This document shows, one piece after another, positions 13,327-37,045 of a stretch of DNA of 64,000 bases. The position numbers and the translations under genes are program-made. Each line of letters opens with the position of its first letter. The stretch's first letter is position 1. The notes under the pieces were generated by a model. It did not search any database, was not told the DNA's origin, and was given only the letters and a program-made list of their open reading frames with translations. This stretch comes from an uncultured Gemmatimonadota bacterium (GTDB taxonomy: Bacteria > JAAXHH01), in contig OX638340.1 in NCBI GenBank assembly GCA_951812955.1, positions 3,136,001-3,200,000 of the forward strand, read 5' to 3'.

Positions 13327-13355
13327 CTAATGTATTTCCTAGGTTGTAGGGTTGC

Positions 13356-15644: not shown

Positions 15645-16367
15645 GCCCTTCTCATCGTCTACGGTCCGGAACGACCGTCCCTGGCCGGACTCGGTGCCCC
15701 AGTTCCCGTAGCGTGAATCGACCGCGTTATCCTGTGTATGCCCGGGTGGTATGACGCGGGAGATCCTCAGCAGGGGGTCGTCGTCGTAGGTGGTCTGGAT
15801 GATGCGTTCTGCAGCGTCTGCGCGGGCCAGGGCGCCGTAGGTATGCTAGGCGGCCGGTGCACAGACCTGAGGACGTGCTTGGGAAGGCTCGTCCGGTTGT
15901 ATCTCGATCGGGCTTCTACATCGCCGGCGCCAGACCCAACTCTGGTCTGTATACAGAGCGCCAGGGTCTATAATCCGCCTGGTACAGTATCAGCCACATA
16001 GGCGAAGTCTGTTGCACAGAACAAGACATCGTCGGTCCACCAATGGTCATGACCGGCCGTATCATTACGGACAGACCGACCTATGAGACTGTATAGAGGC
16101 ACACCGAGGTCGTTTATGATGTTCTGATGTTTTCATTTGTGAGCCTTCTGCATTTACTCTCAACTGACCACCGACAAAAGTGAAACCGGGCTTGCCACGA
16201 CACCTGATCTACCAAAACAGTGGGTTTAGCCAGACCGGAAGAATCCATTGAGTACGGTACCTATAAAACAACTCTGTCCTTGCTTCAAAATAACACAGGA
16301 CCTGGACAAGCTGCGTTCCTATCAACAGCAGGCAACAACCTGTCCAGGAACCCGGCATATACCCAAC

Positions 16368-17036: not shown

Positions 17037-17061
17037 GATTTCTCCTGGGGTTGGACTTCGG

Positions 17062-18918: not shown

Positions 18919-19291
18919 GCGGCTGCGCCAGGAGGTGTTGTCGGGGTGACGCGGATGAGGCCGTGTTTACTCGGAGTAATTGGGCTTGCTAGGAGCGGAT
19001 AGTGAGTAAAGCACTTACCTAGTATGTCGCCTTTGCATGCGACGGGTCCAATCCGACCGGCTACCGTTGCGTCGAAGGCGGCCTGAAGCCACTCAGTCGT
19101 TCAGCCTTGTCCTAAATTGTCAGCATGATTTGCTGAGATTGGTTTTCTTGATTCTCTACAACAAATGTCTGACGCTCAATTCTCATTGTAGCATCTGTCT
19201 ATCCAACGTAGCAACTATGAACTCCATCGAATAAACCATTCAAACATCCAAGCCGACGTACCTACAGGACATTGTTAGTCCGTTCAGAAGC

Positions 19292-20170: not shown

Positions 20171-20979
20171 GGAGACACACTCGGTACTGAAGCATTGTCA
20201 TCACTCGACGATTCGCGAGTTCTATCAAACAACTCATGAAGATCATTTCGTACTTCACGTGACAGCTCTTTCAAGACCGGCGTGCCTTCATTCGGTATTT
20301 TGTACTTCCATAGTTTATATACAACAGTCCCCTTTGGAATCAACGGTCCGTGGTGTAATTCGGCTGTTGTACAAATTCCCAAAACGTCGCCGTTTTCTAA
20401 CTGATACACGTTGGATAGTATCCTGAAAAAGTTGGGATGATCATTGAACTGCGTAAGATGAACCCAGTCCGAAACGAATTCCTCCATTTTTTTCGGATCT
20501 TCAACTGGCACGTCTTTACTACTGAAATCCAGCCAGTCGTCATATGAGAATTTAGTCAAGACCAGTCCGCCCCACGTGTTTTCTTCGTAAAACCCATAAA
20601 AGCGAACAATGTTAAATTGATCGTCTATGCCGATTTTGTACGGTTTACTATCGGATATCCCTCGTCGGACCATGAATACATCATAGGTCAGGAATCTTCG
20701 AGGTAACCTGCTAGTGGGGAAATTAAACACTTGTATGATTTCATGATCCATTGGTATAGGAATTTTACTGACCAGTGCTTCGTACATATCGGGGCGGTCC
20801 CAATTGGCGTCTTGTGATGAGTCCATCAGCGTGCGTTTCTTGTACGCGACGGTTGTCGCTAATTCAAAGAAGGCAACGTAGTGTCTAATTACCTGTGCTT
20901 TCACGCTGTATCCGATTTTCTGTTGGTCATCAGCATCGACCAACATCAGTCCCGCCAGAACACACCAGACCGCCCCCAT
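20167..20979 (-). CDS. secreted hypothetical protein, candidate cognate immunity protein of the main Rhs toxin
   Basis: Starts 16 nt after the rhs stop. Paralogous to 19292..20170 (EEFVSDWVHLTQFNDHPNFFRILSNVYQLENGDVLGICTTAEL). Confidence 0.5.
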   Translation of the reverse strand: MGAVWCVLAGLMLVDADDQQKIGYSVKAQVIRHYVAFFELATTVAYKKRTLMDSSQDANWDRPDMYEALVSKIPIPMDHEIIQVFNFPTSRLPRRFLTYDVFMVRRGISDSKPYKIGIDDQFNIVRFYGFYEENTWGGLVLTKFSYDDWLDFSSKDVPVEDPKKMEEFVSDWVHLTQFNDHPNFFRILSNVYQLENGDVLGICTTAELHHGPLIPKGTVVYKLWKYKIPNEGTPVLKELSREVRNDLHELFDRTRESSSDDNASVPSVSP

Positions 20980-20994: not shown

Positions 20995-23900
20995 CTACTG
21001 TTGCTGCTGTTTCTCAAGTTCTTCCCACTGTTTCCTGAACTTTTCCTGGGCTTCTTTAGCTCTTATTTCGTGAGGTTGATCGTCGTAATCGTACATAGCC
21101 TTCTCAAGCTCTGTTTGTTTGTAGAACTTCGTTGTGCTTTCTATCGATTCGAGTTTTCCTAGTGCTTCGGCAATGTGGAATAGTTCTTCTATCATAGTAC
21201 TCTCTACCATTCCTGCATTACCCTTAATCAACGCCTCATTGATATATGCCACTGAACCTGTTTGAGGGATTATCACCTCTTCTATTTCATCGATGGTTCT
21301 GGCGAAGGCAGGAAAATACCGGAAGTGTATCTGGGCAAGTCCACGGTACGTTTCACCGTCTGGAGCGATATCAAAAACGAATTCCTGAGTAGCTTTATGT
21401 ACATGGTTGTACAACTGATTCCCGATTTCTGTCTTCCTCAGGTTGGCGAAATAGCCCTCGAATCGTTTCCTTTCTACGATCGACAGATCAGATGAGAGTT
21501 TGATAACCCTCCCATCCGGGTCCACATATTTAAGCGGATTGTTGTTGGCATAGGCGTACGGGCTCCGTCCCGGATACTCGTCCTGCATGGGATCGGGCCG
21601 CAGGAATCGGCCTATATTGTAAGCATACGTCCTTGCAAGCATGTAGTCAAGGCCGGACTCGGCGTCTCTCTCGTGGCCGGTGAATCTGAAGTGCGTCTGC
21701 TCTGATCCGCCGGATGCCAGGATATCGCCGTAGGGCCAGTAATCGTAGGCGGCGGTGACCGTGCCTTCCTCATCCACGAGGCTTCTGGTGCTTCCGAGAT
21801 GATCGGTCAGGAAGTAGCTTGCGCTACTACCTGCTATCCGCGCTATTCTTCTGCTGCCCGCGTACACGTACCTTGCAGATAGCATCTGACCCGAGTATTC
21901 GGCCAAGACGGATCCGCCTGGTCCCCGCAGGTAGTAGGTGGTCACCGTGCCTACGGTCTTCTTCACGCGCCGTCTGTCGGGATCCATGAGATACCGTGCG
22001 CTGCCGTAGCCGGTGGTAAGCCCGCGGTAGTCATAGCTCACTGTATCAGTGCCCTTGCGCGTCATCCACCCGTTCGGATTGTAGGCGTAGTTCTGCCCAC
22101 CGGTGCCGGTGGTGCTGTCCAGCCTGTTGGGTGTGGAGGCGGACGTGTAGTTGTAGGTGAGCGTACTGGTACCTGTGACCAGGCTGGTGATATTTCCGTT
22201 CCTGTCGTAGGTGTAGTCCTGCGAGGTACCGCCCGACACGTCGAAGCCGGTGATCCGGTACAGGTCGTCGTAATCGTAGTCCGCGGTTATGGACGCGGCG
22301 CTACCGTGCCGGTACACCTGCCTGGTGACGTTGCCCACGTGGTCGTAGGTGAGGGCGGACTTGAACGTGCCGGCATAGTTCAGGTCTGTGACCCATTCCC
22401 GCGCGTTGTAGGTGTAGGATCCGGTGATGGCGCCGTCTCCCGCGACGTCGCCCACTCCGTCGCCCACAACGTGGGTGGCGATATTACCCGCGGCGGTGTG
22501 GGTGTAAGCAGCCAGGGTCTTGCCTTGCGCATCCCACACGCGGCTGAGCCGCCCGGCGCTGTCGTAGGCGTAGCGCGCCTGGCTGCCGTCGGGATATATG
22601 AGCCTGGTGATGCGCCCAGCCAGGTCGTGGACGTATTCTACCGTCTTGTCGCCGGTCAGGCCGTCGATGTCGACCTGCTTGACGCGCACGTTGCCGAGAT
22701 GGTCGTAGGCGTACAGGTAGCTGACCTCGGCGGTCGCGTCGGCGTCGGTGTTCTCCTCGACGTTGGTCAGACGCCCCTGGGTGTAGTTGGGTCCACCGCC
22801 TGCGGCATCACCGTCGTCGTAGGTCATGCGGCTTCGCCAGGAGGTGGTATCGCGTTCGAAGGGGTAGGAGCTTTCGGGATCTAGGGAGGCGAACGTGGCC
22901 GCTGCCTCGCCCACGCGCGTTACGCGCCCGAAGGCATCGTAGACGGTGTAGGTGATTTTCTCAGTGGCGTTGCCCGTGCCTGCAGCCTTCTGCCGCGCGT
23001 CCTGTGAAAAGCGCACGCGGCCCAGGTCGTCGTACTTGTAGCGGACTGGTCCGGCGGCATCGGGGTGATGCCTGGAGGTCATACGCCCCAGGGTGTCGTA
23101 GGCGTAGGTGGTGGTGGCGGTCAGCGGCCTGGCGGTAGTGCCTCTCTCTGGCATGGTGGTGGAGATGAGGCGATCCAGGGCGTCGTAGACAAAGGACGTC
23201 TTGTTGTTGCGGGTAGCAGCGTCCGTGCCCGCCGAGTCGGCGATGGCATAGCGCATGCGTCCGTAGGTGTCGTAGACGCTGGTGGTTGCCACCCCCTTCT
23301 CATCGTCTACGGTCTGGAACGATCGTCCCTGGCCGGACTCGATACCCCAGTTCCCGTAGCGGGTATCGACCGCATTATCCTGTGTGTGCCCGGGCGGGAT
23401 GACCTGCGATACCCGCAGGAGGGGATCGTCGTCGTAGGAGACTTGAGTGATGCGTTCTGCCGCGTCTGCGCGGGCCAGGGCGCCGTAGGTATGCGAAGGT
23501 GCCCGGTATACGGGACCAAGCAGGGTTTCGGGTTTATTGACGCGGTTGTAGTTCGTCTGGGCGACGATGTCGTTTGCGCCGGCGCTGGCGCGGGTCTGTA
23601 TCTGCCTGGCCAGGCCGTCGAAGGAGGAGGCCACCATCTCGGCGGCGCCGACGTAGAGGTTTGCGAGATATCCGTTTCCGGTCTCTCCCCGGGCCCTGAA
23701 GGCGGGCGTCCAGTTCGCGGGGACGGAGACCGAGGCCGACGCGCCCTTGAAGCGGGTCGTCTCATGACCGTAGAGCCACGCGTTCACGGTGCCCGTGGGC
23801 TGGAGCTCCATCTCCACGCGGGCCCAGGGCCATCTCCGGATGTATCCGGGCACGAAGGCCGAGGAGGCGGTCTGTCCGTCCACCCTGCTTTCAAGTTTTA

Positions 23901-26900
23901 CGGATCCGTTCTCGTAGACCACGCGGACGTGGTCGTCCCCGTCCTCGAAGGCCATGATGACGGTTTTTCCCGAAGATGCCGAGGCCGGATGAAAGTCGGC
24001 CCTTGCGGTGACGTGGCCGCCGACTCTTCCGGTTTCCAGGACGGAGGAGGGTCCGAGTTTCACGGACCGCTTCCCTGCCTTCTCCTGGTTATAGGCGACT
24101 CCCCCGCTGCCGGTGACCTGATCTTCGCCTGCCTGGGGGTCGATCGCAGCGCGGAACTCCGCGCCGGCCTTCGCCTGGAAACCGGTCGTCAGACGTACGC
24201 GTACACTGGCGCGCAGATCCACGGTCTCGCCGGAGGCGATGACGTAGGGGGCATCGGTTTCAAGACTGACGCCCTCCTCGAGGCGGTCGCCCGTGCCGCG
24301 GGCTACGATCCGGTGTCCGTCTCTGGAGAGATCCTTGTGGCCGTCCCTGGAAGGATAGGCGATAACGGTCTGCCGGTTCGGTCTGGCGGTGTTGTACGCG
24401 CTGAAACCGCCGATGCCGCGCGAGAAGCGGTGGTCCCGCTGGGCGGTTATGCGTCCCCTGCTGTCGCTTGCCTGAACGACACGCCTGAGACCGTCCCTCA
24501 GGTACCTCTCGGTATGTCCGTTCGGATCGGTGACGGCGACGGCGTCCAGCGTTACGGGATCCCAGGTGGTCATGACGCCGGGCTGAGCGCCCTGGGGCCA
24601 TACGCGCAGGTTGTCGAAAGCGGCGGCGCCTTGCAGCGCGCCGTTGGCCAGCTTCACGGCGTCTACGACGCCTCTGCGGCCCCTCATGTCCCAGACACCG
24701 GTTGTCGGATAGCGCACGCCGTCCACGTGGGCCCACCATCGCCCGTTCTTCCAGGCGATGCGCAGGCGGTGCCATCGGCCTGGTTCATAGTCGGCGCCGG
24801 TGTCTGTGAGGGCCCCGGACTGGATCACCCGGATGTGTCCGTCCCGGTCGAAGATCCACTGGATGCGGTTCCGTCCCAGGGTTATTTCGGTGCGCTCTCC
24901 GGTGGTCGGCACCCTGACGTCGATCTCGAACACGCCGGCGTCCAGGACGGTCAGGGTACGTTCGGCCACGGCATTGTCCACGGAGAGTGCGCCGCCCTCC
25001 AGGGTGATCGCGCTGCGCCGCCTGTTGTCGGTCCTGCGCCACGAGCCCGCGGCGGTGAGCGCGTCCCAGCCGGCAAGGTCGTCGAAGACCTCGGCGGTCA
25101 CCTGCGAGCCGGAGGCGCCGGTGAAGGCGGCCACGGGCCGCATCCTGCCGTAGCCCATGACCGTGGTGGTGACGGTGCCATGGGCGTCCTGTGCCTCGAT
25201 CAGGTTGCCGTAGGCGTCGTAGCCGGTGGCCACCTCCCGGTCGATCCACTCGCTCGGGCTCACCTGGCCGTCGCTGTCCTTATCGAGCCATACCGAGGTG
25301 GTATCCGGCATGACGATGCTACCTCCGTTGAACCGCCCATAGCGGTACCTGGTGGACTGCAGCCGGGCGCCGGATCCGTCCTTGACCGTGACCACGTGAG
25401 GGCGGTCCAGGATGTGTGCATTCTCCAGGAACACGTCATCGGGATCGTCGGCGTTCTTCCCGGCGACCTGGATATCCTTTGCGTATATCCTGATCTTGCG
25501 GTACACGGCCTGCTGCGGCTTGTATACGCCGGCGTAAAGCGTGAGATTGACTCGGGCGCTGTCCGTGTTCGAAGGTACAGGTACAAGGACGTCGAAGGAT
25601 TCCTCCTTCGGATCGGGCAGCCCGCCGGCTACAGGCACAACATGCGTTAGCGATGCTGCCGAACGGTAACCGCCGTCCTTCCAGTCGACAGTCACCGTGG
25701 CGCCGGCGTACATGTTGTCTCCGCCCTGCAACTGATCGGTCCCGAGGACGCCGCGGATGTGCAGCACATCGGTGCCGGACACGGAGAAGCGGCGGCCCTC
25801 GAAATCGTAGAATCCGGCGCTCTCAGTGACTGAGCCCGCATTCAGGAAGGCCTCCACCGAGGCCGTGGGCGGATCGTCCCGGCTCAGGAAGGCGGCGTGG
25901 ACCCGGTCACCGGTCGAAATGGATGTGTCGAGGACAGGCTGTCCGAAGGCCAGGGCCACCGGACTGCTTGTTACCGCATCTGCGTGATAGCTGGTCTCCG
26001 TGACGCGCAGGGTACGGGACCCGGATTTGAGCGTCTGCGTTGCCACTAGGCCGTTCCTGGCGTTGTGCGTCTGCTGTGTCGTGGTACTTACCCCGTCCCT
26101 GGTGGTCGTCGTCTCCCCTGCTCGCAACCAGTAGGCCTGCTGGGGGATACCCGGATGGTAGAAACTCTGCGACTCGCCGGTCCAGGTTCCCTGGGTCGTG
26201 ACCTGCCAGTCCGTCCGCTCCCGCTGGACCACTGCGCCAATACCGTCGTGCCAGGTTACCTCCTTGAGGAGCCCTCTTCGGATATCGCGTTCGGATTCGT
26301 GCTGCTTGTTCCTGGCCGAAAGCCCCAGGGCGTTCAAGTCGGCTTCGCCTACGAAGTTGCGGCGTATCTTGCCATGGGGCCCGGGCAGGATCTCGTCGAC
26401 GATGGGGAAAGTGATGCGGCGCACGCGATTGGCATTGACGGTCTCCATGACCGCATCGGTCTGGACGTAGACGAACGTAGTCGTATCCGCTACCGCGCCG
26501 CCCAAGCCGTCCGCGTCCCATATCCTGCGCTTGATGCGGCGGGACCGGTCGAAATAGGCGTCATCGTAAGCAAGCGAGGTGTCAGGATTTGTAATCTCCT
26601 CGTAGTCTATCTTCATCTCCCCGCCCGTGGGCGCGACGATCTTCGTAATACGGTAGCTGTCCGCAAGGGTGTTGGTGAAGCGATACGGCGGCAACTGGTC
26701 GCCGGCCGAGTTCCCTGTTCCCTTGATGGCGATTTCCTCGAGCAGCAGCGTGCGCGCATTATCCCCCGAGGCTACGGCAGGCCGCGGAGGACCGCCGTTG
26801 GCGCCGTTGTAGCGGAAGACGTATCGGGCGATCTGATTGCCATCCACGTCCGTAACCTTCAGGGCATCGAGACGGTGCGTACTCGCAAGGCCGTCGTACA

Positions 26901-28107
26901 TCCGGTAGTTCCGGTTGTCGGTGACCAGGTGATGGCCGTAGGACAGGGTCTCACCGGACGGCGTGTCGAAGTAGTTGTCATAGGTGATCACCACACCACC
27001 GCGAGAGGCAATCTGGATGTCGGGCCTGGCGCTGGTCTCGGTCGTGATCTTGCGTACGACCTTGCCATCTGTGCCGGCGAGGATGACCGTGTCGAGGTGC
27101 GCCGTGTTAAACGTCTTGACTACGGTCAGGTTGGTGCGGCTCTGACCAACCGTTATCCCGCCGGGAAACCGCGGGTCGATGTCCGCGTAGTCGAGCAGGT
27201 TGCGAAAAGAGCGCGTGGTTTCGGCCCGTTCCCTCGCCCTGTCCCGCACGGTGGTCACCGGACCGTCAGAGGTATACCGGAAGCGGATCGTGTTGCCGGC
27301 CTGGTCCCGGATCTCGGCCAGGTTCCACTGGTATACCATCTCGGGCATGAGTTCGTTGAAACCCCCCTGCTGTACCGCGCCGCCCTTGACGGTCTGGTTC
27401 ATGCCGTAGTCCTTGCCCGAGATCGTAACGGCGCCGAAAGTGTAGACCAGGCCCGATACGGTCTTGACCGTCCAGGTGGAGGAAAGCGGCGCATTCCTGT
27501 CGAAGTTCCACCTGATGTCCATGAAGCGCCTGTTCTCGGCGTAATAGACGTTGGTGGCGGGTAGCGCTACTCCCGGAGTGGCGGCGCGCTGCGAGTCGTC
27601 CAGTTGTCTGACGAGACGGTGGGAGCCGTCGGGAAGCACCAGGGAGAGATTGAAGGAAAAAGGATGGTTGATGGGACTACTCACGTCGCGCAGGTTGTAG
27701 CCGCCGGTCACCCTGATGGCCCCGAACTCCAGGTTCCATCCCAGGCCCACCCACGTGGCGTTATTGAGCGTAACCGTGCCCTTGCTGTTGGACTTGATCT
27801 GCTCGGCCGTGCCCAACTTGATCAGACGGTCGGTACCCGTCACCGCGCTGCTGTAGCGCATGCGAATGGGCAGGGACATGCCGCCCGCGCCTTCGACGTC
27901 GCCTAGCGGCACCGCGTAGGACCAGTTGCCCGAAAAGTAGTCAACCTGATCCGCGTCTATGACGCCGGAGAGGCTGTCGAAGTCGTAGGCGCTCTTGGAG
28001 GCATCTGTGATCGGCGTCTGCTGGCCGTGAACGATTGGCGCCGCCGTGGAGAGCATGAGGATGCCGATGAGCATCCTCACAGCGAAACAGCACAGGTGTC
28101 TTTGCAT
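20995..28107 (-). CDS. giant RHS/YD-repeat polymorphic toxin with Sec signal, SpvB-like N-terminal region and C-terminal toxin domain
   Basis: ATG at 28107 with SD AAAGGAG. Signal MQRHLCCFAVRMLIGILMLSTAAPIVHG. SpvB/TcB-like GLGWNLEFGAIRV. Long run of YD repeats. RHS core end YANNNPLKYVDPDG followed by a unique 200-aa tip. Confidence 0.85.
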   Translation of the reverse strand: MQRHLCCFAVRMLIGILMLSTAAPIVHGQQTPITDASKSAYDFDSLSGVIDADQVDYFSGNWSYAVPLGDVEGAGGMSLPIRMRYSSAVTGTDRLIKLGTAEQIKSNSKGTVTLNNATWVGLGWNLEFGAIRVTGGYNLRDVSSPINHPFSFNLSLVLPDGSHRLVRQLDDSQRAATPGVALPATNVYYAENRRFMDIRWNFDRNAPLSSTWTVKTVSGLVYTFGAVTISGKDYGMNQTVKGGAVQQGGFNELMPEMVYQWNLAEIRDQAGNTIRFRYTSDGPVTTVRDRARERAETTRSFRNLLDYADIDPRFPGGITVGQSRTNLTVVKTFNTAHLDTVILAGTDGKVVRKITTETSARPDIQIASRGGVVITYDNYFDTPSGETLSYGHHLVTDNRNYRMYDGLASTHRLDALKVTDVDGNQIARYVFRYNGANGGPPRPAVASGDNARTLLLEEIAIKGTGNSAGDQLPPYRFTNTLADSYRITKIVAPTGGEMKIDYEEITNPDTSLAYDDAYFDRSRRIKRRIWDADGLGGAVADTTTFVYVQTDAVMETVNANRVRRITFPIVDEILPGPHGKIRRNFVGEADLNALGLSARNKQHESERDIRRGLLKEVTWHDGIGAVVQRERTDWQVTTQGTWTGESQSFYHPGIPQQAYWLRAGETTTTRDGVSTTTQQTHNARNGLVATQTLKSGSRTLRVTETSYHADAVTSSPVALAFGQPVLDTSISTGDRVHAAFLSRDDPPTASVEAFLNAGSVTESAGFYDFEGRRFSVSGTDVLHIRGVLGTDQLQGGDNMYAGATVTVDWKDGGYRSAASLTHVVPVAGGLPDPKEESFDVLVPVPSNTDSARVNLTLYAGVYKPQQAVYRKIRIYAKDIQVAGKNADDPDDVFLENAHILDRPHVVTVKDGSGARLQSTRYRYGRFNGGSIVMPDTTSVWLDKDSDGQVSPSEWIDREVATGYDAYGNLIEAQDAHGTVTTTVMGYGRMRPVAAFTGASGSQVTAEVFDDLAGWDALTAAGSWRRTDNRRRSAITLEGGALSVDNAVAERTLTVLDAGVFEIDVRVPTTGERTEITLGRNRIQWIFDRDGHIRVIQSGALTDTGADYEPGRWHRLRIAWKNGRWWAHVDGVRYPTTGVWDMRGRRGVVDAVKLANGALQGAAAFDNLRVWPQGAQPGVMTTWDPVTLDAVAVTDPNGHTERYLRDGLRRVVQASDSRGRITAQRDHRFSRGIGGFSAYNTARPNRQTVIAYPSRDGHKDLSRDGHRIVARGTGDRLEEGVSLETDAPYVIASGETVDLRASVRVRLTTGFQAKAGAEFRAAIDPQAGEDQVTGSGGVAYNQEKAGKRSVKLGPSSVLETGRVGGHVTARADFHPASASSGKTVIMAFEDGDDHVRVVYENGSVKLESRVDGQTASSAFVPGYIRRWPWARVEMELQPTGTVNAWLYGHETTRFKGASASVSVPANWTPAFRARGETGNGYLANLYVGAAEMVASSFDGLARQIQTRASAGANDIVAQTNYNRVNKPETLLGPVYRAPSHTYGALARADAAERITQVSYDDDPLLRVSQVIPPGHTQDNAVDTRYGNWGIESGQGRSFQTVDDEKGVATTSVYDTYGRMRYAIADSAGTDAATRNNKTSFVYDALDRLISTTMPERGTTARPLTATTTYAYDTLGRMTSRHHPDAAGPVRYKYDDLGRVRFSQDARQKAAGTGNATEKITYTVYDAFGRVTRVGEAAATFASLDPESSYPFERDTTSWRSRMTYDDGDAAGGGPNYTQGRLTNVEENTDADATAEVSYLYAYDHLGNVRVKQVDIDGLTGDKTVEYVHDLAGRITRLIYPDGSQARYAYDSAGRLSRVWDAQGKTLAAYTHTAAGNIATHVVGDGVGDVAGDGAITGSYTYNAREWVTDLNYAGTFKSALTYDHVGNVTRQVYRHGSAASITADYDYDDLYRITGFDVSGGTSQDYTYDRNGNITSLVTGTSTLTYNYTSASTPNRLDSTTGTGGQNYAYNPNGWMTRKGTDTVSYDYRGLTTGYGSARYLMDPDRRRVKKTVGTVTTYYLRGPGGSVLAEYSGQMLSARYVYAGSRRIARIAGSSASYFLTDHLGSTRSLVDEEGTVTAAYDYWPYGDILASGGSEQTHFRFTGHERDAESGLDYMLARTYAYNIGRFLRPDPMQDEYPGRSPYAYANNNPLKYVDPDGRVIKLSSDLSIVERKRFEGYFANLRKTEIGNQLYNHVHKATQEFVFDIAPDGETYRGLAQIHFRYFPAFARTIDEIEEVIIPQTGSVAYINEALIKGNAGMVESTMIEELFHIAEALGKLESIESTTKFYKQTELEKAMYDYDDQPHEIRAKEAQEKFRKQWEELEKQQQQ

Positions 28108-28293
28108 GGTGAACTCCTTTAACATGGATGAATTGGAAAGGGGGTTGAATGAAACGCGCGATGTCAACGCATGGATGTATCGGATGAAGACCGGCATGAT
28201 GCGCTCCTTGATGGCGGACGGAACAGCCGCCCGGCATGGATCCTGCAACTCGTTATCGGGATGTGAGACTGAAGTCTTTGCGGGCATGAAATG

Positions 28294-28565: not shown

Positions 28566-29390
28566 TCACCGATTCTTCTCCAGATCTGAAAGGCGCCTCT
28601 CCAGCGACTCGATGTAATGCTGCTGCGCGGCAAGCTGCCGCGTCTGCTCGTCGATGAACTTCCGCTGGGAAGCCAGTGCCCTGTGCTGGTCGATGGTGTA
28701 GAGCATGAGCTCCTCCACTTTCTCCAGCAGCCGGGTCTGCATCCGGCCGACGCTGACGCCTTCGGCTTCCATCTCGGCGCCCGGGGCGATGCCCGGAAGA
28801 TGACCGCGGGTTCGGATATGTTCTTTCAACGCGTCCAGGGACATGAGGTCGTAGTCCTCGTCGAACACGTAGTCGGCGGGCGTGACGTCCTCTATGTGGA
28901 TCTCCTCGGCCTTGATGCGGCCGTCCACGACGAGCCGCTCGTCCGGATCGTCCACGCCGATGCCCACGTTGCCGGTCAGCCGATAGACGTTGTCGTCCGA
29001 CACCGACCAGGGACTGCCCGCCAGCGCCGTGACGCGGAACGTCGCACTTGGCGAGTTCGTCATGGTACCCAGCTTCACCGTTACGTTCACCCGGCCCGGC
29101 TTAGCCGCTGCAATCGTCAAAGTGTTGCCGGAAACGCTGACCGTCACCAGATTCATGTCCGAAGACGTGGCGCTGAACCCGAGCGTGCCGATCATGCCGG
29201 TGACATAGATTGACAGATCCAGTTCAAGCTGGCCGCCGACCGCCAGGAACTGCGCCGGGATGGACTTCAGCGTCGGCGTCGACTGGTCGGGGACGGGTTC
29301 GTCTAACGCGTCTGCAAGCAGGGCTCCGGCATGCACCTTCGGTGTGATAAGCGCTGCCAGCATTGAAATGGTCAATAGAATCCTAAGCAT
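28566..29390 (-). CDS. secreted protein: Ig-like domain + conserved C-terminal fibre-like coiled-coil module
   Basis: ATG 29390 with SD AAAGGAG. Signal MLRILLTISMLAALITPKVHA. C-terminal ~165 aa about 70% identical to the C-terminus of the adhesin (WSVSDDNVYRLTGNVGIGV...LLEKVEELMLYTIDQH). Confidence 0.6.
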   Translation of the reverse strand: MLRILLTISMLAALITPKVHAGALLADALDEPVPDQSTPTLKSIPAQFLAVGGQLELDLSIYVTGMIGTLGFSATSSDMNLVTVSVSGNTLTIAAAKPGRVNVTVKLGTMTNSPSATFRVTALAGSPWSVSDDNVYRLTGNVGIGVDDPDERLVVDGRIKAEEIHIEDVTPADYVFDEDYDLMSLDALKEHIRTRGHLPGIAPGAEMEAEGVSVGRMQTRLLEKVEELMLYTIDQHRALASQRKFIDEQTRQLAAQQHYIESLERRLSDLEKNR

Positions 29391-29461
29391 GAATTGCTCC
29401 TTTCTGCGGTTAATGGAAATTGTGTCTCTGCGATCCTCATGGGACTGCGGGTTTCCGGTCA

Positions 29462-32400
29462 TCATTGCTCCAACCTTTCCAGGCGATGGTCCAGCTGCCT
29501 GACAACCTGGTGTTGCAGCTTGAGCCGCCGCCGCTGCGAATCGATACTATGGCCCTGCGCGCGGAGCTGTTCGTGCTGGCCTATGACGTAAAGCGAGAGC
29601 TCTTCGATCTTCTCCAGCAGCAGGGTTTGCATCCGGCTGATGCCGATACCCTTGGCCTTCATCTCCACGCCGGAGGCCACGCCCGGCAGGTGGCCATGGC
29701 CCCGGATGTGACGCGCCACGTCCTCCAGGGGCATGAGGTCGTAGCCCGGCCCGAACACGTAGTCGGCAGGCGTCATCGGAACGTACACCTCCTCGGCCCT
29801 GATCTTGCCGTCCACGACGAGCTTCTGATCCGGACTGGAAACGCCGATACCCACGTTGCCGGTAAGCCGGTAGACGTTCTCGCCCGACACGGACCATGGA
29901 GTCGAGAATGGATCCATCACCGTGATCATGAAGGACACAGACGCGGGATCGCACCCATCATTTTCGGCCGTATCCGTAGCGGTAACCGTCACGGTTGCGA
30001 TCCGGCCGACCGATTTCGGATCGATCTTCAAGACGCTGCCTTCTATGCTCAACACCGCGATCTCCGGGTTCGGAGACGTGACCGTGATCTCGATTTTGTC
30101 CTGATCGAGTCGTTCGAAGTGTTCCGTCAGATCGATCGGCGTTTTCCCCGCGCCTGCGAACAGCGTCTGGTCCTGGATGGGAGCGTCCGTGATCGCGGCC
30201 GGACAGGGCAGGATCACCGTGATTACAAAGGATTGCGTCACCGGATCGCAATCCTGCTTGCTGACCGTAACGCTTAGCGTATCCGTACCGGCGGCCGCAG
30301 GCGTGACCGTCAGCGTGTCTCCGGCAAGACTTGTAGTCGTTACGGTCGAATCGGTGGAGTTGACTACGTAGTCCGGGTCGAATTCCGCCGGAAGCGAGAA
30401 ATATGTCGTCAGATCGATCGGGAGGGCGTCCCCTCCTACGGTGAGCCTCTGATCCAATATGCTGCCCATCAGCGCGGGGCAGGTTGCCGGTGGCGGCGGT
30501 TCGGTCACAGTGAGCGTCGCCGTGCCGGAAACATTGTCCACCGCTGCCGAAATCGTCGTGGAACCCGCATCCTGCGCCGTGGCCAATCCCGCGGTGCTGA
30601 TCGTCGCGACCGCCGTGTCGCTGCTCGTCCAGGTAAAAGTCTTGCCCGGGATCTCCATGTTGTCTGAGTCATAAGCAGTAGCGGAGAACTGCTGCGTCTC
30701 GCCCTCCTCGACCGTCGCTTCAGATGGACTCACCTTCACCGACGATGCCATCGGCAGCGTTGGCGGCGGTTCCACCACCCTGGCGTTGAATACCTGGCTG
30801 GCTCCTGTTCCGCATCCAACTCTGGAAACTGTAACTGTAACCTGAGCGTTACCGGCGATACCCGGAGATATAGCCAGGGTGCTATCCGTTCGACTGGCTC
30901 TCGCTACGTCAGCGTTCGACGACACGATCGTGTACGCAATGTTGCTCTTGTCGAGGTTGGTGAAATGCGAGTTGAGGTTCACTTCAACATCGCTTCCACC
31001 AATAATCATCGACACGTCTCTGCTGGGATGCATCTGCTTCACCGCGGGACATTCTGCAATCGGCGGTACAGGATCAACCGTTACGTTGAAGTCCCGCGTT
31101 ACGTCGGTGCACCCGGCTGCGCTGACCGTGACGATGACCTTTCCGGTATGCCCCTGGGTCTTGGGCTCGATTGTCAGCGTATGTCCGGATATGCTCACCG
31201 TCGCTGTGCCCGGGCTCGGATTATTGGCACTGTAGGTCGGGGTGACACCCTGTGGTATTTCGAAGTAGTCCGATACGTCCATCGTCACCGAATCACCGCC
31301 TGCAACCATCGCGGGGGGTGTAATGACGACAGTGTTTGCCGTCGGGCAGGCTGGCGGCGGTGGCGGCGGCGGAGGTCCGACGGATACGTTGAAGTCCCGC
31401 GTGACGCCGGTGCATCCGTTCGCGCTGGCCGTGACAATGACCTTTCCGGTATCCCCCTGGGTTATGGGTGTGATCGTCAGCGTGTCTCCGGATATGCTCA
31501 CCGTCGCTGTGCCCGGGCTCGGATTATTGGCACTGTAGGTCGGGGTGACGCCCTGAGGTATCGTGAAATAGGTCGATACGTCGATCTTTACCGAGTCCCC
31601 ACCCGCAACCATCGCAGGGAGCGTAATGGCGACGGTGTTTGCCGTCGGGCAGGCTGGCGGTGGCGGCGGCGGCGGAGGTCCGACGGATACGTTGAAGTCC
31701 CGCGTTACGCCGGTGCATCCGTTCGCGCTGGCCGTGACAATGACCTTTCCGGTATCCCCCTGGGTTATGGGTGTGACCGTCAGCGTGTCTCCGGATATGC
31801 TCACCGTCGCTGTGCCCGGGCTCGGATTATTGGCACTGTAGGTCGGGGTGACGCCCTGAGGTATCGTGAAATAGGTCGATAGGTCGATCTTTACCGAGTC
31901 CCCACCCGCAACCATCGCAGGGAGCGTAATGGCGACGGTGTTTGCCGTCGGACAGGAGGGTGGTGTCGTCTGTTCAGGCCCCACGACGACTCTGAAATCC
32001 TCCGATATACGCAGCCCTTCGGTATCGGTTGCGGTCACCGTGACCTTGCCGATCTCTCCTTCGGATTTGGGGGCCACCGTCACCTCGCTGCCCGATATGC
32101 TTACTTTGGCGACTGAAGAATCCGGGTCGTCTACCGAGAAGGTGAGGCTGTCTCCATCAGCATCGGAAAAATTGCCCGACACGTCGAAACTCTCCGACGG
32201 ATCGCCCACCCTTATATTTACGTCAGCAATGCTCCCCACAATCTCCGGAGCACGATTCATCACAGACACGCTGATGCTCTGCGTCGCCGACGCCTTGTCA
32301 ATGTCCTCGGCTTTTACCGTAATCGTCGCACTTCCTGAATTGCCGGAGGTGATGGTCACCGTACCGCCGGACACGCTGGCGGTGGCCACGGCCGTATTGG

Positions 32401-34663
32401 ACGATGAGGCACTGTATGTGAGCGCATCGCCGTCGGGATCGGTGAACTTACCCGAGACGATTACGTCCTGAGTGTGCCTGTTCTTGTAGAGGGTGACAGC
32501 ATCGATCGAACCCTGCGCCTGAGGGGATTTGTTCCGCACGGTGACCGTAAAATCGGTCGAAACGGAAGCGCTGAGTGCATCAGTCGCGGTCACTGTAACG
32601 GTCGCGTCTCCGCCGTCATCTTCAGATTCGATCGTCGCCGTACTTCCAGTAACGCTGGCGGTAACGATGTTCGTATTGGACGATCCGGCCGAGAAGGTCA
32701 TTTGATCGCCGTCGGGATCCGAGAAGTGCCTGGATACGTTGAAGCTATATGAGCTGTTCTTGTTTAACGATCTGTCAGGTATACTCTGCGATACTACGGG
32801 ACGCCTGTTGACCACCTCTACGGCAAAACCATGTCTGTTGCTGGCATCATCCGTATCCGTCGCAGTCACCGTGACTCTGGCTGAGCCAAGTACTCCTGGA
32901 TCGACCTCCACGTCGCTACCCGATACGCTGACCGTAGCCACGGAGGAATCGGACGAAGTGGCAGTAAAGGTGAGCGCGTCGTTGTCCGGATCGCGGAAAT
33001 TGTCCGAAACGTCGGTACTCTTTGTAGCCTGGCCCCTGTAGAACGTCATTTTCGAAATATCACCCTGTGGTTGCGGTATTCTATTGATCACGGTGACGTC
33101 AAAATCCTGCGTACCGGTGGCATCGTCGGTATCTTCGGCGGTAACCGTGATCGTGGCCGTACCTTTTACCCCCGACCTGACGGTCACCGTGCTGCCTGAT
33201 ACTCTGACGGTCGCCACGCTCGTTTCGTCCGATGTTGCCGAGTAGGTGAGGGCGTCGCCGTTGGGATCGGAGAACTTGCTTGAGACAGAGACGTTCCGGG
33301 TTTTTCCTTTCTTGTACAGAGTTATATTGGAGATGGTACCCACTGCCCGAGGCGGTTGATTGGTCACCGTGGCGGTGAAATCCTGTACGGCGGTCTCTCC
33401 ATCGGGGTCCGTGGCCGTTACGATGATCTTGCCCGTTGAGCCGGTAGCTACGGGTGCTATCGTGACGGTGCTTCCCGATATGCTCACCGTGACGATCGAA
33501 GGATTCGGGGAGTTGACCGAATAAGTGAGGGTATCGTTATCCGGATCGGAGAACTTGCCGGACACGCTGCGGGTTGCCGAGGAACCGCCCTTGTTAAGGG
33601 AGACGTCGCTGATGGATCCTACGGCTACAGGCGCCATGTTCGCGGGCGGTGGAGGCGGAGGAGCCGCCTCCACGGTGGCGGTAAAGTCCTGGGTGGCGGT
33701 GAGGCTGTCAGGGTCGGTGGCCGTTACGATGATCTTGCCCGTCGTGCCGGCGGCTACCGGCGCTATCGTGACCGTGCTTCCCGATATGCTCACGTTGGCA
33801 ATCGATGAACTCGGGGAATTGACCGAATAGGTGAGGGTGTCGCCGTCGGGATCTGAGAACTTGCCTGACACACTGCGGGTTGCCGAGGTGCCGCCCACCT
33901 GCAGCGTCACATCGGAGATGGACCCGACCGCTGTGGGCGCCCTGTTCGCTGGTGGTGGCGGGGGTGGCGGAGGAGCCGCCTCCACGGTGGCGGTGAAGTC
34001 CTGTGTGGCGGTAAGGCCGCCCGGGTCTCTGGCCGTGACGATGATCTTGCTCGTCGTGCCGGCGGCCACGGGCGCGACCGTCACCGTACTTCCCGCGATG
34101 CTCACGTTGGCAATCGATGAACTCGGGGAATTGACCGAATAGGTGAGGGTGTCGCCGTCGGGATCGGAGAACTTGCCGGACACGCTGCGGGTTGCCGAGG
34201 TGCCGCCCACCTGCAGCGTCACGTCGGAGATAGACCCTACGGTAGTGGGTGCCCGGTTCGCCGGCGGGGGCGGCGGAGGGTTCTGCACCGTGGCAGTGAA
34301 GTCCTGTGTGGCGGTAAGGCCGCCCGGATCCCTGGCCGTGACGATGATCTTGCTCGTCGTGCCCACGGCCACGGGCGCGACCGTCACCGTACTTCCCGCG
34401 ATGCTCACGGTGGCAATCGACGAACTCGGTGAATTGACCGAATAGGTGAGCGTGTCGCCATCGGGGTCTGAAAAGTACGACGAGGCGTTTACCGTTGCCG
34501 AGGAGCCGCCTACGTAAAGCGTCCCGACGTCGATATAGCTGACCGTCTGCGGCGCCCGGTTCTGCGGAGGCGCGGGGCCGGGTGGAAACCCCGGCACTGC
34601 TCCTCGCGCGGCCTGTCCCGGCCACGTTGCGAGCAGCATGAAACAAAGTAAAACGCGAAGCAT
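29462..34663 (-). CDS. giant cell-surface protein with >12 tandem Ig/cadherin-like ~100-aa repeats, poly-Pro linkers and a C-terminal fibre-like module
   Basis: Signal MLRVLLCFMLLATWPGQA after SD AAAGGA (ATG 34663). Repeats of ...FSDPDGDTLTYSVNSP...VTVAPVAAGTT..IIVTA.D.... PPPPPP linkers. Near-identical DNA repeats. Confidence 0.75.
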   Translation of the reverse strand: MLRVLLCFMLLATWPGQAARGAVPGFPPGPAPPQNRAPQTVSYIDVGTLYVGGSSATVNASSYFSDPDGDTLTYSVNSPSSSIATVSIAGSTVTVAPVAVGTTSKIIVTARDPGGLTATQDFTATVQNPPPPPPANRAPTTVGSISDVTLQVGGTSATRSVSGKFSDPDGDTLTYSVNSPSSSIANVSIAGSTVTVAPVAAGTTSKIIVTARDPGGLTATQDFTATVEAAPPPPPPPPANRAPTAVGSISDVTLQVGGTSATRSVSGKFSDPDGDTLTYSVNSPSSSIANVSISGSTVTIAPVAAGTTGKIIVTATDPDSLTATQDFTATVEAAPPPPPPANMAPVAVGSISDVSLNKGGSSATRSVSGKFSDPDNDTLTYSVNSPNPSIVTVSISGSTVTIAPVATGSTGKIIVTATDPDGETAVQDFTATVTNQPPRAVGTISNITLYKKGKTRNVSVSSKFSDPNGDALTYSATSDETSVATVRVSGSTVTVRSGVKGTATITVTAEDTDDATGTQDFDVTVINRIPQPQGDISKMTFYRGQATKSTDVSDNFRDPDNDALTFTATSSDSSVATVSVSGSDVEVDPGVLGSARVTVTATDTDDASNRHGFAVEVVNRRPVVSQSIPDRSLNKNSSYSFNVSRHFSDPDGDQMTFSAGSSNTNIVTASVTGSTATIESEDDGGDATVTVTATDALSASVSTDFTVTVRNKSPQAQGSIDAVTLYKNRHTQDVIVSGKFTDPDGDALTYSASSSNTAVATASVSGGTVTITSGNSGSATITVKAEDIDKASATQSISVSVMNRAPEIVGSIADVNIRVGDPSESFDVSGNFSDADGDSLTFSVDDPDSSVAKVSISGSEVTVAPKSEGEIGKVTVTATDTEGLRISEDFRVVVGPEQTTPPSCPTANTVAITLPAMVAGGDSVKIDLSTYFTIPQGVTPTYSANNPSPGTATVSISGDTLTVTPITQGDTGKVIVTASANGCTGVTRDFNVSVGPPPPPPPPACPTANTVAITLPAMVAGGDSVKIDVSTYFTIPQGVTPTYSANNPSPGTATVSISGDTLTITPITQGDTGKVIVTASANGCTGVTRDFNVSVGPPPPPPPPACPTANTVVITPPAMVAGGDSVTMDVSDYFEIPQGVTPTYSANNPSPGTATVSISGHTLTIEPKTQGHTGKVIVTVSAAGCTDVTRDFNVTVDPVPPIAECPAVKQMHPSRDVSMIIGGSDVEVNLNSHFTNLDKSNIAYTIVSSNADVARASRTDSTLAISPGIAGNAQVTVTVSRVGCGTGASQVFNARVVEPPPTLPMASSVKVSPSEATVEEGETQQFSATAYDSDNMEIPGKTFTWTSSDTAVATISTAGLATAQDAGSTTISAAVDNVSGTATLTVTEPPPPATCPALMGSILDQRLTVGGDALPIDLTTYFSLPAEFDPDYVVNSTDSTVTTTSLAGDTLTVTPAAAGTDTLSVTVSKQDCDPVTQSFVITVILPCPAAITDAPIQDQTLFAGAGKTPIDLTEHFERLDQDKIEITVTSPNPEIAVLSIEGSVLKIDPKSVGRIATVTVTATDTAENDGCDPASVSFMITVMDPFSTPWSVSGENVYRLTGNVGIGVSSPDQKLVVDGKIRAEEVYVPMTPADYVFGPGYDLMPLEDVARHIRGHGHLPGVASGVEMKAKGIGISRMQTLLLEKIEELSLYVIGQHEQLRAQGHSIDSQRRRLKLQHQVVRQLDHRLERLEQ
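31020..31930. repeat. three tandem ~303-bp near-identical repeats inside the adhesin gene
   Basis: Identical antisense ORFs 31323..31538 and 31626..31841. The internally repeated ORF 30965..31882 shows the same period. Confidence 0.7.
33525..34445. repeat. three tandem ~306-312-bp near-identical repeats inside the adhesin gene
   Basis: Antisense ORFs 33525..33830, 33831..34142 and 34143..34445 are near-identical. Confidence 0.7.
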
Positions 34664-34737: not shown

Positions 34738-35118
34738 TCAGTAGCTCCATATCGTCGGCCTGGGAATGCCCGGCGCCTTGTCGAGGTCGTCGACGTGCAC
34801 GTAGCGGCTCCGGAAGTCCCCCCGCTGCCTGATGCCGATGCCGGTGAAACCGAGCATCAGCGCCATGCGGACGAGCCGGTGCGCCTTGTCGCCCGATATC
34901 GCGATGTCGACGGCCCGGCCGGCCAGATGGGCCGAACGGGACCTGCCCCCCACCTTGGCGTTGTGCTGGGGCGATCTGTACGCCGAGGTGACGATCAAAG
35001 GGAAACCGAGTTCCTCGCGCAGCAGCACGAGCCTGAGCATGAATCGCTCGTCCATCTCGTGCCTGCCGGTGTCCGGCGAGGAAAGGATCTGGTTCGGGAA
35101 GTACGGCCACGACTTCAT
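34738..35118 (-). CDS. peptidase M15 (VanY/YcbK-like zinc D-Ala-D-Ala carboxypeptidase fold), endolysin-like
   Basis: SAYRSPQHNAKVGG, SAHLAGRAVDI, YVHVDD zinc-ligand motifs. ATG 35118 preceded by SD AAGGAGG. Confidence 0.7.
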   Translation of the reverse strand: MKSWPYFPNQILSSPDTGRHEMDERFMLRLVLLREELGFPLIVTSAYRSPQHNAKVGGRSRSAHLAGRAVDIAISGDKAHRLVRMALMLGFTGIGIRQRGDFRSRYVHVDDLDKAPGIPRPTIWSY

Positions 35119-35247: not shown

Positions 35248-35496
35248 TCACTTGAGCCGGCGGATCGTGAATGCGGGAGTATCCCATGCAGGATCACCTG
35301 CGTCCGCGTTCGGGGTGCTATGCGGAAGGACGCCGGACCGCCGGGTGGTCGCCCGGACGGTCCGCTCCTTCCCCTTCAACTGCTTGACGGCGGCTGACGG
35401 ACCGCCGTGTGCGGGCTTCCGATCGTTGCCGGGAGCCCTTGTATCTGCTTTGAGACCAACGCTGGTCGATCCTGCATCCGCGCGTTGCCGCTTCAT
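35248..35496 (-). CDS. small basic hypothetical protein
   Basis: 82-aa K/R-rich ORF. Start overlaps the stop of 35493..35702 (ATGA). Weak. Confidence 0.25.
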   Translation of the reverse strand: MKRQRADAGSTSVGLKADTRAPGNDRKPAHGGPSAAVKQLKGKERTVRATTRRSGVLPHSTPNADAGDPAWDTPAFTIRRLK

Positions 35497-35702
35497 TCCT
35501 GCTCCTTGTGCCTATCGAGCACGACCTCGTAGATCAGATCGATCTTGGCGGTCAGGTTCTCGATGTCCCGTTCGATCTTCGACAGGCGGACCTCGCGCAT
35601 GGTCATACGATCCACGAAGGGTGCGATGAACTTGAAAATGAAAATCCACAGCGCGACCAGGACGGCGATGACGACGATCCAGACCGATACGTTTTCCGGC
35701 AT
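35493..35702 (-). CDS. small membrane protein: single TM helix + C-terminal coiled coil (holin/spanin-like architecture)
   Basis: ATG 35702 with SD AGGAG. VWIVVIAVLVALWIFIF then REVRLSKIERDIENLTAKIDLIYEVV. Confidence 0.45.
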   Translation of the reverse strand: MPENVSVWIVVIAVLVALWIFIFKFIAPFVDRMTMREVRLSKIERDIENLTAKIDLIYEVVLDRHKEQE

Positions 35703-35843
35703 GTCGAGTTGCTCCTGATCCGGACTTGCGGCAGGCAGAGAAGTGAACAGGACGCCGCAACGGGCGAGCGGCCCGGTGCTTGTACCGGCCGGGCGCGCCT
35801 GCTTTCGTGCGGTCGAGTGAACAGGGTTTTCGGGAAAGGGCAT

Positions 35844-35940
35844 AAAAATCCCCGTGCCGTGGGTCGATCAGAAGTAGCACGGGGACGCTGGAAGGTCCGC
35901 GGGGTGCGGGTCCGCTATGGGGACGCGAGGGTATTCTGAT
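35844..35940 (+). repeat. 97-bp repeat copy B
   Basis: Near-identical to 28294..28390, same orientation. Minus-strand hairpin + T-run. Confidence 0.8.
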
Positions 35941-35979: not shown

Positions 35980-36019
35980 TTGACAGATATACTATACACG
36001 TGATTAGTATATCTGTCAA
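35980..36019. promoter_or_regulatory. 40-bp perfect palindrome TTGACAGATATACTA-n10-TAGTATATCTGTCAA (operator or bidirectional terminator candidate)
   Basis: 15-bp perfect inverted arms around tacaCGTGat. Followed by CAGGGTTTTTC. Each arm begins with TTGACA. Confidence 0.45.
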
Positions 36020-36068
36020 CAGGGTTTTTCAAAAAAACACATTTGTTCTATTTTACTGCATGCAAGGC

Positions 36069-36488
36069 TCATGCTCCTTTCAATGCGCCCTGGTTCGTTG
36101 CCTTGCACCTGCGGCACCTGATGCTCCAGGGACGAGAGAAGTATCTGCCCAGCACGCGGCCGCATTTCCAGCACCGGGGCTGGTGGTCCGTAACCGGCGC
36201 GGGCCCCGTGGGGTTGCCGTTCAGATCCCCGACTCCCTTACCGTCGATATACGGATCACTCGGGGTCGCATCCCCGGTCTCGGCGAACCGCTCGTCTGAT
36301 CGGGAACCATCTTGCCCGTCCGATCGGGAATCGACGGACCATTCCGTCCCGCTGCTCCCGCTCGGTGTTATGGTCGTACCCTCCCGGTTCCGGCGCGTTC
36401 CGCACACCGGGCAGATCCAGTAGGGATACTCGCCGGACACGCGGAGCATGGACCGGCCACAGCATCTTAGATTGTTGCCGTGTGACAT
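36069..36488 (-). CDS. small protein with two zinc-ribbon-like Cys clusters flanking a D/G/S-rich linker
   Basis: CC-x15-CPVC near the N-terminus and CWKC-x17-CRRC at the C-terminus. SD GGAGAGAGG before the ATG. Overlapping plus-strand ORFs have implausible composition. Confidence 0.4.
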   Translation of the reverse strand: MSHGNNLRCCGRSMLRVSGEYPYWICPVCGTRRNREGTTITPSGSSGTEWSVDSRSDGQDGSRSDERFAETGDATPSDPYIDGKGVGDLNGNPTGPAPVTDHQPRCWKCGRVLGRYFSRPWSIRCRRCKATNQGALKGA

Positions 36489-37045
36489 AAGAAACACCTC
36501 TCTCCGTCCTCCCGGACGGCATAGACCGTGCGGGATTTAGCAGGCTCCTGCACGGCAAGTAGATATGAATATATACACAACAAATGTTTAGTAAACTTCG
36601 CCACCTGTCAAGACTTTAATGCATTATTTAAACTATCGATAAATTGTAGAATTCTCGATTTTGCCTGCTTCGTTTGAAAGCTGGATCCCGAAGTTATTGT
36701 AACCTGGCGGGTTGCGCGGTCATCGATTGCATGCTGGCGAAAGAATTCGACACGCAATCAGATACACCCTGGGAAGGCATCAGTTACTTCGTGCACGAAT
36801 TGGAGGGGAAAATAGCTCGGTGGAATCGGCCGGGGAGTGGGCATAGCGGTTTGAAGGGGAATATGGATCGGCGGAATCGGCCGGGGAGTGGGCATGGCGC
36901 GTCCGCCGCTTAACGAGATGGTATTACTTACGGGAAGACCTGCGAGTCAGAGAACACACTGACGGGTATCGTGCGAGGTATCGTGCGATACTTAAGTTGT
37001 ACAATTGTACAGGTTAATCTTCCTGGTCATCTTCCAGTATTGCCG

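Follow-up and report, generated by a model that had tools for sequence, protein, structure and literature searches.

The subject of this study is a C-terminal module that is common to two adjacent proteins encoded in a 64,000-nt stretch (the window) of contig OX638340.1 from an uncultured Gemmatimonadota bacterium. The two genes belong to an operon whose genes all lie on the minus strand. Read in the direction of transcription, the operon encodes a holin-like miniprotein of 69 residues with an N-terminal transmembrane (TM) helix and a coiled coil (35493..35702), an endolysin-like M15 peptidase of 126 residues identified by a profile match to Peptidase_M15_3 (34738..35118), the big immunoglobulin (Ig)-repeat protein of 1733 residues (29462..34663), the small protein of 274 residues (28566..29390) and, directly downstream of the small gene, an RHS polymorphic toxin in an open reading frame (ORF) of 2430 residues (20995..28287). 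That the RHS gene is the key neighbour of the module genes had gone unmentioned in an earlier note on this DNA. We found the module again at the C-terminus of tail fibres in phage contigs and of a large family of bacterial proteins, mostly from Bacteroidota and with signal peptides, whose genes are followed by RHS genes in most of the loci analysed.

Both proteins begin with a Sec-type signal peptide (judged by eye) when read from MLRILL in the small and MLRVLL in the big protein; the longest ORFs extend further, to 29465 and 35287, respectively, the latter overlapping the M15 gene in another frame. The signal peptide of the small protein is followed by a single Ig-like (Big_2-like) domain and the module, and that of the big protein by Ig-like repeats with poly-proline linkers and then the module. 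Pfam matches in the big protein are to Big_9 (nine stretches), Cadherin_4 (five) and Big_2 (six), and may partly overlap. The module occupies 28566..29015 in the small protein (149 residues and the stop codon) and 29462..29902 at the C-terminal end of the big one. The C-terminal regions match each other by BLASTP with E=2e-61, so that both ORFs and their common C-terminus are real, as the earlier note had it, and the motif it quoted for the module is correct. Its estimate of about 70% identical amino acids and 80% identical nucleotides was essentially right, if slightly high: global alignment gave 65% over a core of 109 residues (PWSV…LY.I.QH), 36% over the coiled-coil tail of 36 residues, 55% over the whole module and 76% at the nucleotide level, while the column identity in a MAFFT alignment is 80%. 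A weak similarity continues upstream into the preceding Ig-like domain. Since orthologous modules are closer to each other than the two paralogous modules within one genome, the duplication is old, with both copies retained. The big gene also contains two tandem DNA repeats, at 31082..31956 (period 303 nt, 2.9 copies, 92% matches) and at 33365..34465 (period 312 nt, 3.6 copies, 85%); the near-identical Ig-like domains and poly-proline linkers that they encode indicate recent internal duplication.

The module consists of three parts. It starts with one turn of a beta-helix with the pattern GNVGIGxxxPxxKLxVxG (GNVGIGV..P..LVVDG in the small protein), continues with a helical domain of about 60 residues (ADYVF…GHLPG…LLEKVEELMLY in the small protein), and ends in a coiled coil of about 45 residues in the window proteins versus about 20 in the phage proteins. 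The consensus of the helical domain is D-[YF]-V-F-x3-Y-x-L-x2-L … G-H-L-P-G-[IV]-P … L-L-E-K-[VI]-E-E-L-T-L-Y, in which D, V, Y, H, L, K, E, E and L are invariant across the window, phage and Bacteroidota sequences. A confident AlphaFold2 monomer model of the module (pLDDT 92.8) has four short strands and helices at 48-51, 60-70 and 79-85, followed by a terminal helix of 60 residues. No model in Pfam, NCBIfam or PHROG covers the module.

A profile built from 64 homologues matches solved structures over the GNVGIGxxxPxxKLxVxG part only. These structures are fibres of the mosaic adhesive trimer (MAT) type from Bdellovibrio (8ond, E=4.1e-17; 8oml, 1.6e-11; 8ol4, 1e-7; also 8on4 and 8ojn) and, weakly, MYRF. 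Judging from these matches and from the phage proteins described below, the beta-helix part of the module is homologous to the trimeric fibres of MAT proteins, MYRF and phages. The helical domain, in turn, has no significant relative when a profile of the domain alone is compared with PDB sequences, nor in Pfam scans of 34 diverse domain sequences.

The resemblance to C-terminal modules of phage tail fibres that the earlier note had pointed out is borne out by the beta-helix matches and by phage contigs in which the helical domain ends the fibre. In 50,697 deposited phage genomes, tblastn searches with three versions of the module did not find the helical domain and returned the GNVGIG motif only, or nothing; the motif matches fall in proteins named 'distal tail fiber'. 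The helical domain is present in 28 IMG/VR contigs, and in at least eight of them (L096, L100, L102, L103, L106, L107, L108, L110) it forms the extreme C-terminus of proteins of 559-3052 residues, which are rich in fibre repeats and carry no signal peptides; taken together, the fibre proteins that end in the domain in phage contigs span 330-3052 residues. Their neighbouring genes match PHROG families of tail sheath, tail tube, baseplate hub, portal, terminase and endolysin, so by their gene content these are genuine contigs of uncultivated myoviruses. Some relatives also match Pfam PF03903 (Phage_T4_gp36) above threshold, for example P0028 over residues 43-170 (31.3 bits), up to the DYVF motif; the window proteins themselves have no PF03903 match. 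As an observation on the fibre unit itself, 212,482 proteins match the GNVGIG-type profile at E<=0.001 in a library of 1.84 billion representative proteins, and in giant proteins of 4,000-7,900 residues (e.g. P0154-P0162) the unit is repeated 30-50 times. Such multi-repeat proteins swamped this search, which is unusable for counting helical domains; in a few proteins, P0194 and P0228 among them, the alignment at the extreme C-terminus covers the profile almost to its end, consistent with a helical-domain ending.

In bacteria, at least 584 module loci were confirmed when a sequence pattern was scanned against GTDB, with each species represented by one genome, and a profile of the helical domain alone found it in at least 5,350 clusters at 90% identity among 8,000 scored candidates. 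The clusters are all named hypothetical, SlyX or bZIP. Most family members are Bacteroidota proteins with signal peptides; their ORFs measure 220-560 residues (longest-ORF calls, which are overestimates), and the module is always C-terminal. Neighbourhoods were analysed at 80 loci by clustering the ORFs within 6 kb of the arrays. At 47 of the 80 loci, two or more module genes stand in tandem on the same strand, at 19 there are five or more, and Sphingobacterium spiritivorum has up to 17. Within one array, the modules of paralogues share 56-64% of their residues, but the 110 residues before the module only about 20%. The design of the family is thus one of a constant handle and variable heads.

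The dominant neighbour family at these loci is that of RHS-repeat proteins, found at 45 loci, with a second RHS cluster at seven (some loci perhaps counted in both), and nearly all of them lie downstream on the same strand. A downstream RHS gene on the same strand is present within 150 bp at 27 of the 80 loci, within 2 kb at 46 and within 5.5 kb at 50, while at a further 10 no RHS gene was found in less than 3 kb of downstream sequence. A control for direction with a crude YD-motif detector found an RHS-like ORF downstream at 29 loci and upstream at two. Coupling to RHS is seen also in Opitutales (L026) and in Balneolaceae (L051), where two module genes are followed by an RHS protein of 2338 residues in a layout like that of the window. 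The earlier note had proposed to check whether homologous modules co-occur with M15 or holin genes. They do not: relatives of the window-type M15 and holin-like proteins were absent from the other module loci outside the Gemmatimonadota-type operon, and the coupling is to RHS across Bacteroidota, Balneolales and Opitutales. In the searchable literature, which is incomplete, we found no description of the helical domain or of the linkage between fibre arrays and RHS.

Other genes accompany some of the arrays. Type IV-filament-like genes (secretin, T2SSE ATPase, pilin-like, and weak PilN- and PilO-like) lie upstream of some of them, and a secretin or T2SSE ATPase is present at 11 of the 80 loci. 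In the Bacteroidota loci L007, L020, L040 and L044 such sets stand beside arrays and RHS genes (e.g. L007:2688-8904); their secretin carries STN/FecR_C, and there is no obvious PilC/GspF platform gene. The set may be a dedicated export machine. Hidden Markov models built from the Bacteroidota neighbours found no secretin, T2SSE or pilin-like gene in the window. An OmpH/Skp-like gene is nearby at seven of the 80 loci; in L004, L007 and L044, which were mapped in detail, its place is between array and RHS gene.

The RHS protein of the window matches RHS_repeat with E=1.6e-13 and Rhs cores in the PDB. It has a signal-peptide-like segment from M61, an RHS shell at about residues 1550-2290 and a variable C-terminal toxin after DPDGR. 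Up to residue 2270 its orthologue in L111 keeps 73% identity; beyond that point the two sequences diverge, as one would expect of the tip of a polymorphic toxin. The RHS gene is followed immediately, at 19292..20979, by two ORFs of 270 and 292 residues; these are paralogues of each other (26% identity, E=7e-29), and from their position they are putative immunity proteins. With its repeats and core, its variable tip and its downstream immunity-like and orphan cassettes, the locus is by sequence an RHS polymorphic toxin locus. The stretch 11553..20979 on the minus strand can be described as an RHS 'graveyard': between 11553 and 18918 it holds orphan C-terminal fragments of 463 (17527..18918), 762 (13356..15644) and 282 residues (11553..12401), and a separate Tox-URI2 ORF (17062..17484) beside the first of these. 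The GC content falls to 0.47-0.53 at the tips of the RHS cassettes. A TcB/SpvB-like N-terminus of the window RHS protein, considered on a motif resemblance, was supported neither by Pfam (E<=0.01) nor by phmmer against the PDB; SpvB gave a sub-threshold match in one Bacteroidota RHS protein only, and the N-termini of neighbouring RHS proteins are only weakly similar.

The gene order of the window is conserved in at least three other metagenomic contigs. L001 has the holin-like gene, the M15 gene, the big and small genes and the RHS gene in the same order, and the 22-kb contig L111 (ENA ERZ25069412) has them as well, at 71% identity for the holin-like protein, 91% for M15, 76% for the big and 55-60% for the small protein, preceded by a Cys-rich ORF. 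L112 and L113 cover the operon from the holin-like gene through M15 into the first part of the big gene, with 92-99% identity, and L113 also has part of the Cys-rich ORF upstream. The M15 copies of L111, L112 and L113 are 91-99% identical to that of the window and in the identical position. In a Gemmatimonadetes metagenome-assembled genome (L002), the big, small and RHS genes are present, with the orthologue of the small protein at 73% identity. A look-up of the exact sequence of the small protein returned no record, and its nearest named relative comes from a Gemmatimonadetes metagenome-assembled genome.

The M15 product matches Peptidase_M15_3 with E=1.8e-18 and the endolysin family PHROG 894 with E=2e-27, in agreement with the endolysin-like peptidase that had been proposed at this position. 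Its gene has a strong ribosome-binding site (AAGGAGG) and lies 75 bp upstream of the big gene. The protein has neither a signal peptide nor a hydrophobic N-terminus (by eye), and thus conforms to what is seen in type 10 secretion systems (T10SS), a hydrolase without signal peptide beside cargo genes. Relatives at 35-45% identity are found in contigs of phage-like gene organisation, i.e. small ORFs packed on one strand (judged by organisation alone), which is consistent with a phage origin of the M15 gene. As for the miniprotein, the ORF, TM helix and coiled coil that had been predicted are all present, and its identity as a holin is weak: the 69-residue protein hits holin families in PHROG at no better than E=0.002 and 0.11, and Pfam has no holin model that matches it. 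An upstream ATG at 35843 would yield a protein of 116 residues.

A sigma-70-like promoter site (TTGACA, a spacer of 17 nt, TATAGT; 11 of 12 matches) lies at 35991..36019 on the minus strand and is enclosed by a perfect 13-bp inverted repeat, TTGACAGATATAC/GTATATCTGTCAA, in the region 35985..36030. Promoter and palindrome are probably the start of the operon and its operator. About 110 nt downstream of the promoter, just 5' of the holin-like ORF, a GC-rich hairpin (CCCCGTGC…GCACGGGG) followed by ATTTTT at 35843..35885 (minus strand) could act as an attenuator. A scan for terminators by consensus detected none on the minus strand between the operon genes, and an Rfam scan of the whole window gave zero matches. 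Upstream of the operon, the Cys-rich ORF of 142 residues (36069..36497, minus strand) has four CxxC pairs, is zinc-ribbon-like and has no Pfam match; L001, L111 and L113 have it in the same place, directly before the operon, and it is possibly a regulator. The stretch that separates the M15 gene from the holin-like gene contains a basic low-complexity ORF of 82 residues (35248..35496, minus strand). Only L112 and L113, the closest relatives, conserve it, and since L001 and L111 have a much shorter gap here, the ORF is probably a non-coding spacer. Farther away, a defence-island-like run on the plus strand (42659..51542, GC about 0.49-0.54) contains a RadC-like JAB protein, a fusion of a UvrD-family helicase with a PD-(D/E)XK nuclease (954 residues), an N6/N4 DNA methylase, a ResIII/type III restriction helicase (947 residues) and a PIN-domain protein.

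We suggest that these are fibre-end modules of phage ancestry on secreted Ig-repeat accessory proteins of an RHS toxin system, equipped with a T10SS-like release pair, and we put the probability of this reading at about 0.5. The last beta-helix turn, the helical domain and the coiled coil would together end a trimeric fibre of the phage type. In other fibres, the S74 intramolecular chaperone does the nucleation of the trimer; here, by analogy, the module would nucleate and cap the trimer at its C-terminus without the Ser-Lys protease. If this reading is right, the helical domain would be a non-S74 C-terminal domain new to phage tail fibres. The module would be the constant handle common to otherwise variable fibre or adhesin proteins. 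The big and small proteins would be exported by Sec and co-transcribed with the RHS gene, and could cooperate with the RHS protein, physically or functionally, as trimeric accessory adhesins or targeting fibres. The holin-like protein and M15 peptidase would be a domesticated phage lysis pair that opens the cell wall and releases very large periplasmic proteins in a T10SS-like manner. Several points weigh against this reading. What speaks for trimerisation of the helical domain is its position and the homology of the fibre; the coiled coil, with V/I at a and L at d, fits a dimer as well as a trimer; the invariance of several charged residues (D, H, K, E and E) could point to catalysis or to the binding of a ligand, not merely to folding; and the phage copies of the domain sit at the distal tip, which is also a place of receptor binding. 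In addition, the miniprotein matches holins only weakly (E=0.002) and a spanin was not found, the M15/holin pair is absent from module loci beyond the Gemmatimonadota-type operon while some Bacteroidota have a secretin or T2SSE ATPase instead, and about 20 of the 80 loci have enough flanking sequence and yet no RHS gene.

The main rival takes up some of these points. The helical domain and coiled coil could be a docking or anchoring domain, to RHS, a pilus-like filament or the outer membrane, or else a conserved tip that binds a receptor or a ligand, with folding not its primary role. A constant module under variable heads, tight synteny with RHS, invariant residues that suggest a binding or active site and the distal-tip position in phages are all compatible with it; its conservation across phages and four bacterial phyla is, however, extreme and atypical for receptor-binding tips, no partner domain was seen to co-vary with the module, and the N-terminal similarity of the neighbouring RHS proteins is weak. 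We regard docking or binding as a doubtful account, though one to be taken seriously. A different alternative accepts the folding role and takes the module for a divergent Peptidase S74 chaperone that cleaves itself off after trimerisation. The module is placed as S74 domains are, directly C-terminal to the GNVGIG beta-helix turn, as in MYRF and the S74 MAT fibres; some relatives bear the UniRef names 'Peptidase S74 domain-containing' or 'Chaperone of endosialidase'; and weak structural matches in BFVD include S74 proteins (E=0.017-0.5, all above 0.01). The Ser-Lys dyad of S74 is nevertheless absent: when MYRF (GRVGINTDRPDEALVVHG) is aligned to the module (GNVGIGVDDPDERLVVDG), its SD.R.K site, (S/A)DLRAK, stands opposite VTPADYVF, and the family consensus has no SD.R.K. 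PF13884 matches none of 64 family members (E<=0.01) and none of 34 helical-domain sequences (E<=1). In hhalign, an S74 reference alignment (one domain from L058 and 32 homologues, all but one annotated PF13884) aligns with the module over 33 columns of coiled coil only, with a probability of 40-44%. With motif, Pfam and hhalign all against it, the idea of an intramolecular chaperone, which the earlier note had listed for a check, fails in its S74 form, and a divergent member of that family is highly improbable. A bona fide S74 fibre protein (SDARVK…) does occur in Cyclobacteriaceae, at L058:6243-7187, 3 kb upstream of a module gene, so that both kinds of fibre C-terminus coexist in one neighbourhood.

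The phage connection could also be read as decay, with the module proteins as degraded tail fibres of a prophage or tailocin, the M15 and holin-like genes as its leftover lysis cassette, and no functional link to RHS. That the module occurs on real phage fibres, that M15 is endolysin-like with distant relatives in phage-like contigs, and that the miniprotein is weakly holin-like would all fit. The window, though, has no capsid, tail, terminase or integrase gene in Pfam scans of the flanking ORFs, which found only RHS, hydrolase, ThiD/ThiN and defence genes, and no tRNA in a tRNA search, so the absence of capsid, tail and integrase genes noted before holds. No other phage genes accompany the conserved operon in L111, L001 and L112/L113 either, and the maintenance of the six-gene order at 55-99% amino acid identity in these four independent contigs, in full in L111 and L001 and in part in L112/L113, argues for selection. 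Signal peptides and bodies of Ig-repeat adhesins are unlike phage fibres, and the synteny of module and RHS spans phyla. A phage-derived ancestry of the cassette, as proposed earlier, thus agrees with its fibre module and endolysin-like M15, whereas a prophage remnant does not agree with an operon that recurs without phage genes, and we consider the latter quite unlikely.

Our preferred reading, of accessory fibre proteins of an RHS toxin system, can be carried one step further, on tentative ground and with odds well below even: the module proteins could be interchangeable targeting fibres of an undescribed class of Sec-exported RHS toxins, assembling with the RHS cocoon or acting beside it to recognise target cells, and export through the outer layers could be provided by the type IV-filament/secretin machine in Bacteroidota or by the holin/M15 pair in Gemmatimonadota. 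We know of no mechanism of targeting or release for RHS toxins that are delivered neither by the type VI secretion system nor as Tc complexes. If the fibres do target, they would offer a testable handle on how RHS toxins find and reach their targets; exchangeable receptor-binding proteins would be expected to look like this family, with its constant end, its hypervariable heads and its arrays of up to 17 genes. The reading would also supply a candidate for T10SS-like release beyond the Proteobacteria and Firmicutes. Should it be wrong, the definition of the domain would still be useful for annotation.

Among known systems, the closest in the fibre itself are the MAT fibres of Bdellovibrio bacteriovorus, subclass NS74 (Caulton et al. 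2024, PMC10769870; PDB 8ond, 8oml, 8ol4, 8on4). Both are secreted mosaic fibre adhesins with many paralogues, built on the GNVGIG…KLxVxG trimeric beta-helix repeat and with a C-terminal end that is not S74. The arrangement is reversed: MAT proteins are conserved at their N-terminal anchor and vary at their C-terminal tips, whereas the module family has a constant C-terminus and a variable remainder. The DYVF/HLPG/LLEKVEEL helical domain is not in the MAT structures, and the passages of that paper considered here describe no linkage to RHS. The S74/ICA domains of endosialidase tailspikes and MYRF (PF13884) resemble the module in following the last beta-helix turn with a helical body that ends in a long helix or coiled coil; they differ in having the Ser-Lys dyad, and the similarity of the profiles is confined to the coiled coil. 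For the T4 gp36-type domain (PF03903), the match covers the fibre part of some relatives and leaves the helical domain outside.

On the toxin side, the window resembles the RHS/YD polymorphic toxin loci of Zhang et al. 2012 (PMC3482391) in its RHS shell, variable toxin tip, immunity-like genes, orphan RHS C-terminal cassettes and Tox-URI2. In the passages of that paper that were searched, 'tail fiber' appears only as a type of repeat within toxins, and secretin, holin, M15 or separate upstream genes for module fibres do not appear. For release, the nearest parallel is the T10SS of Yersinia entomophaga, in which RHS-containing Tc toxins are released by a holin/endolysin system; Serratia ChiWX and the typhoid toxin TtsA are other cases of T10SS or lysis cassettes (PMC10847048). 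The window departs from these in its weak holin, in the lack of a spanin among the genes found, and in cargo with Sec signals of its own; the layout is specific to the Gemmatimonadota-type operon. What it has in common with them is that very large toxin genes, RHS among them, stand beside genes for a small membrane protein and for a peptidoglycan hydrolase that lacks a signal peptide.

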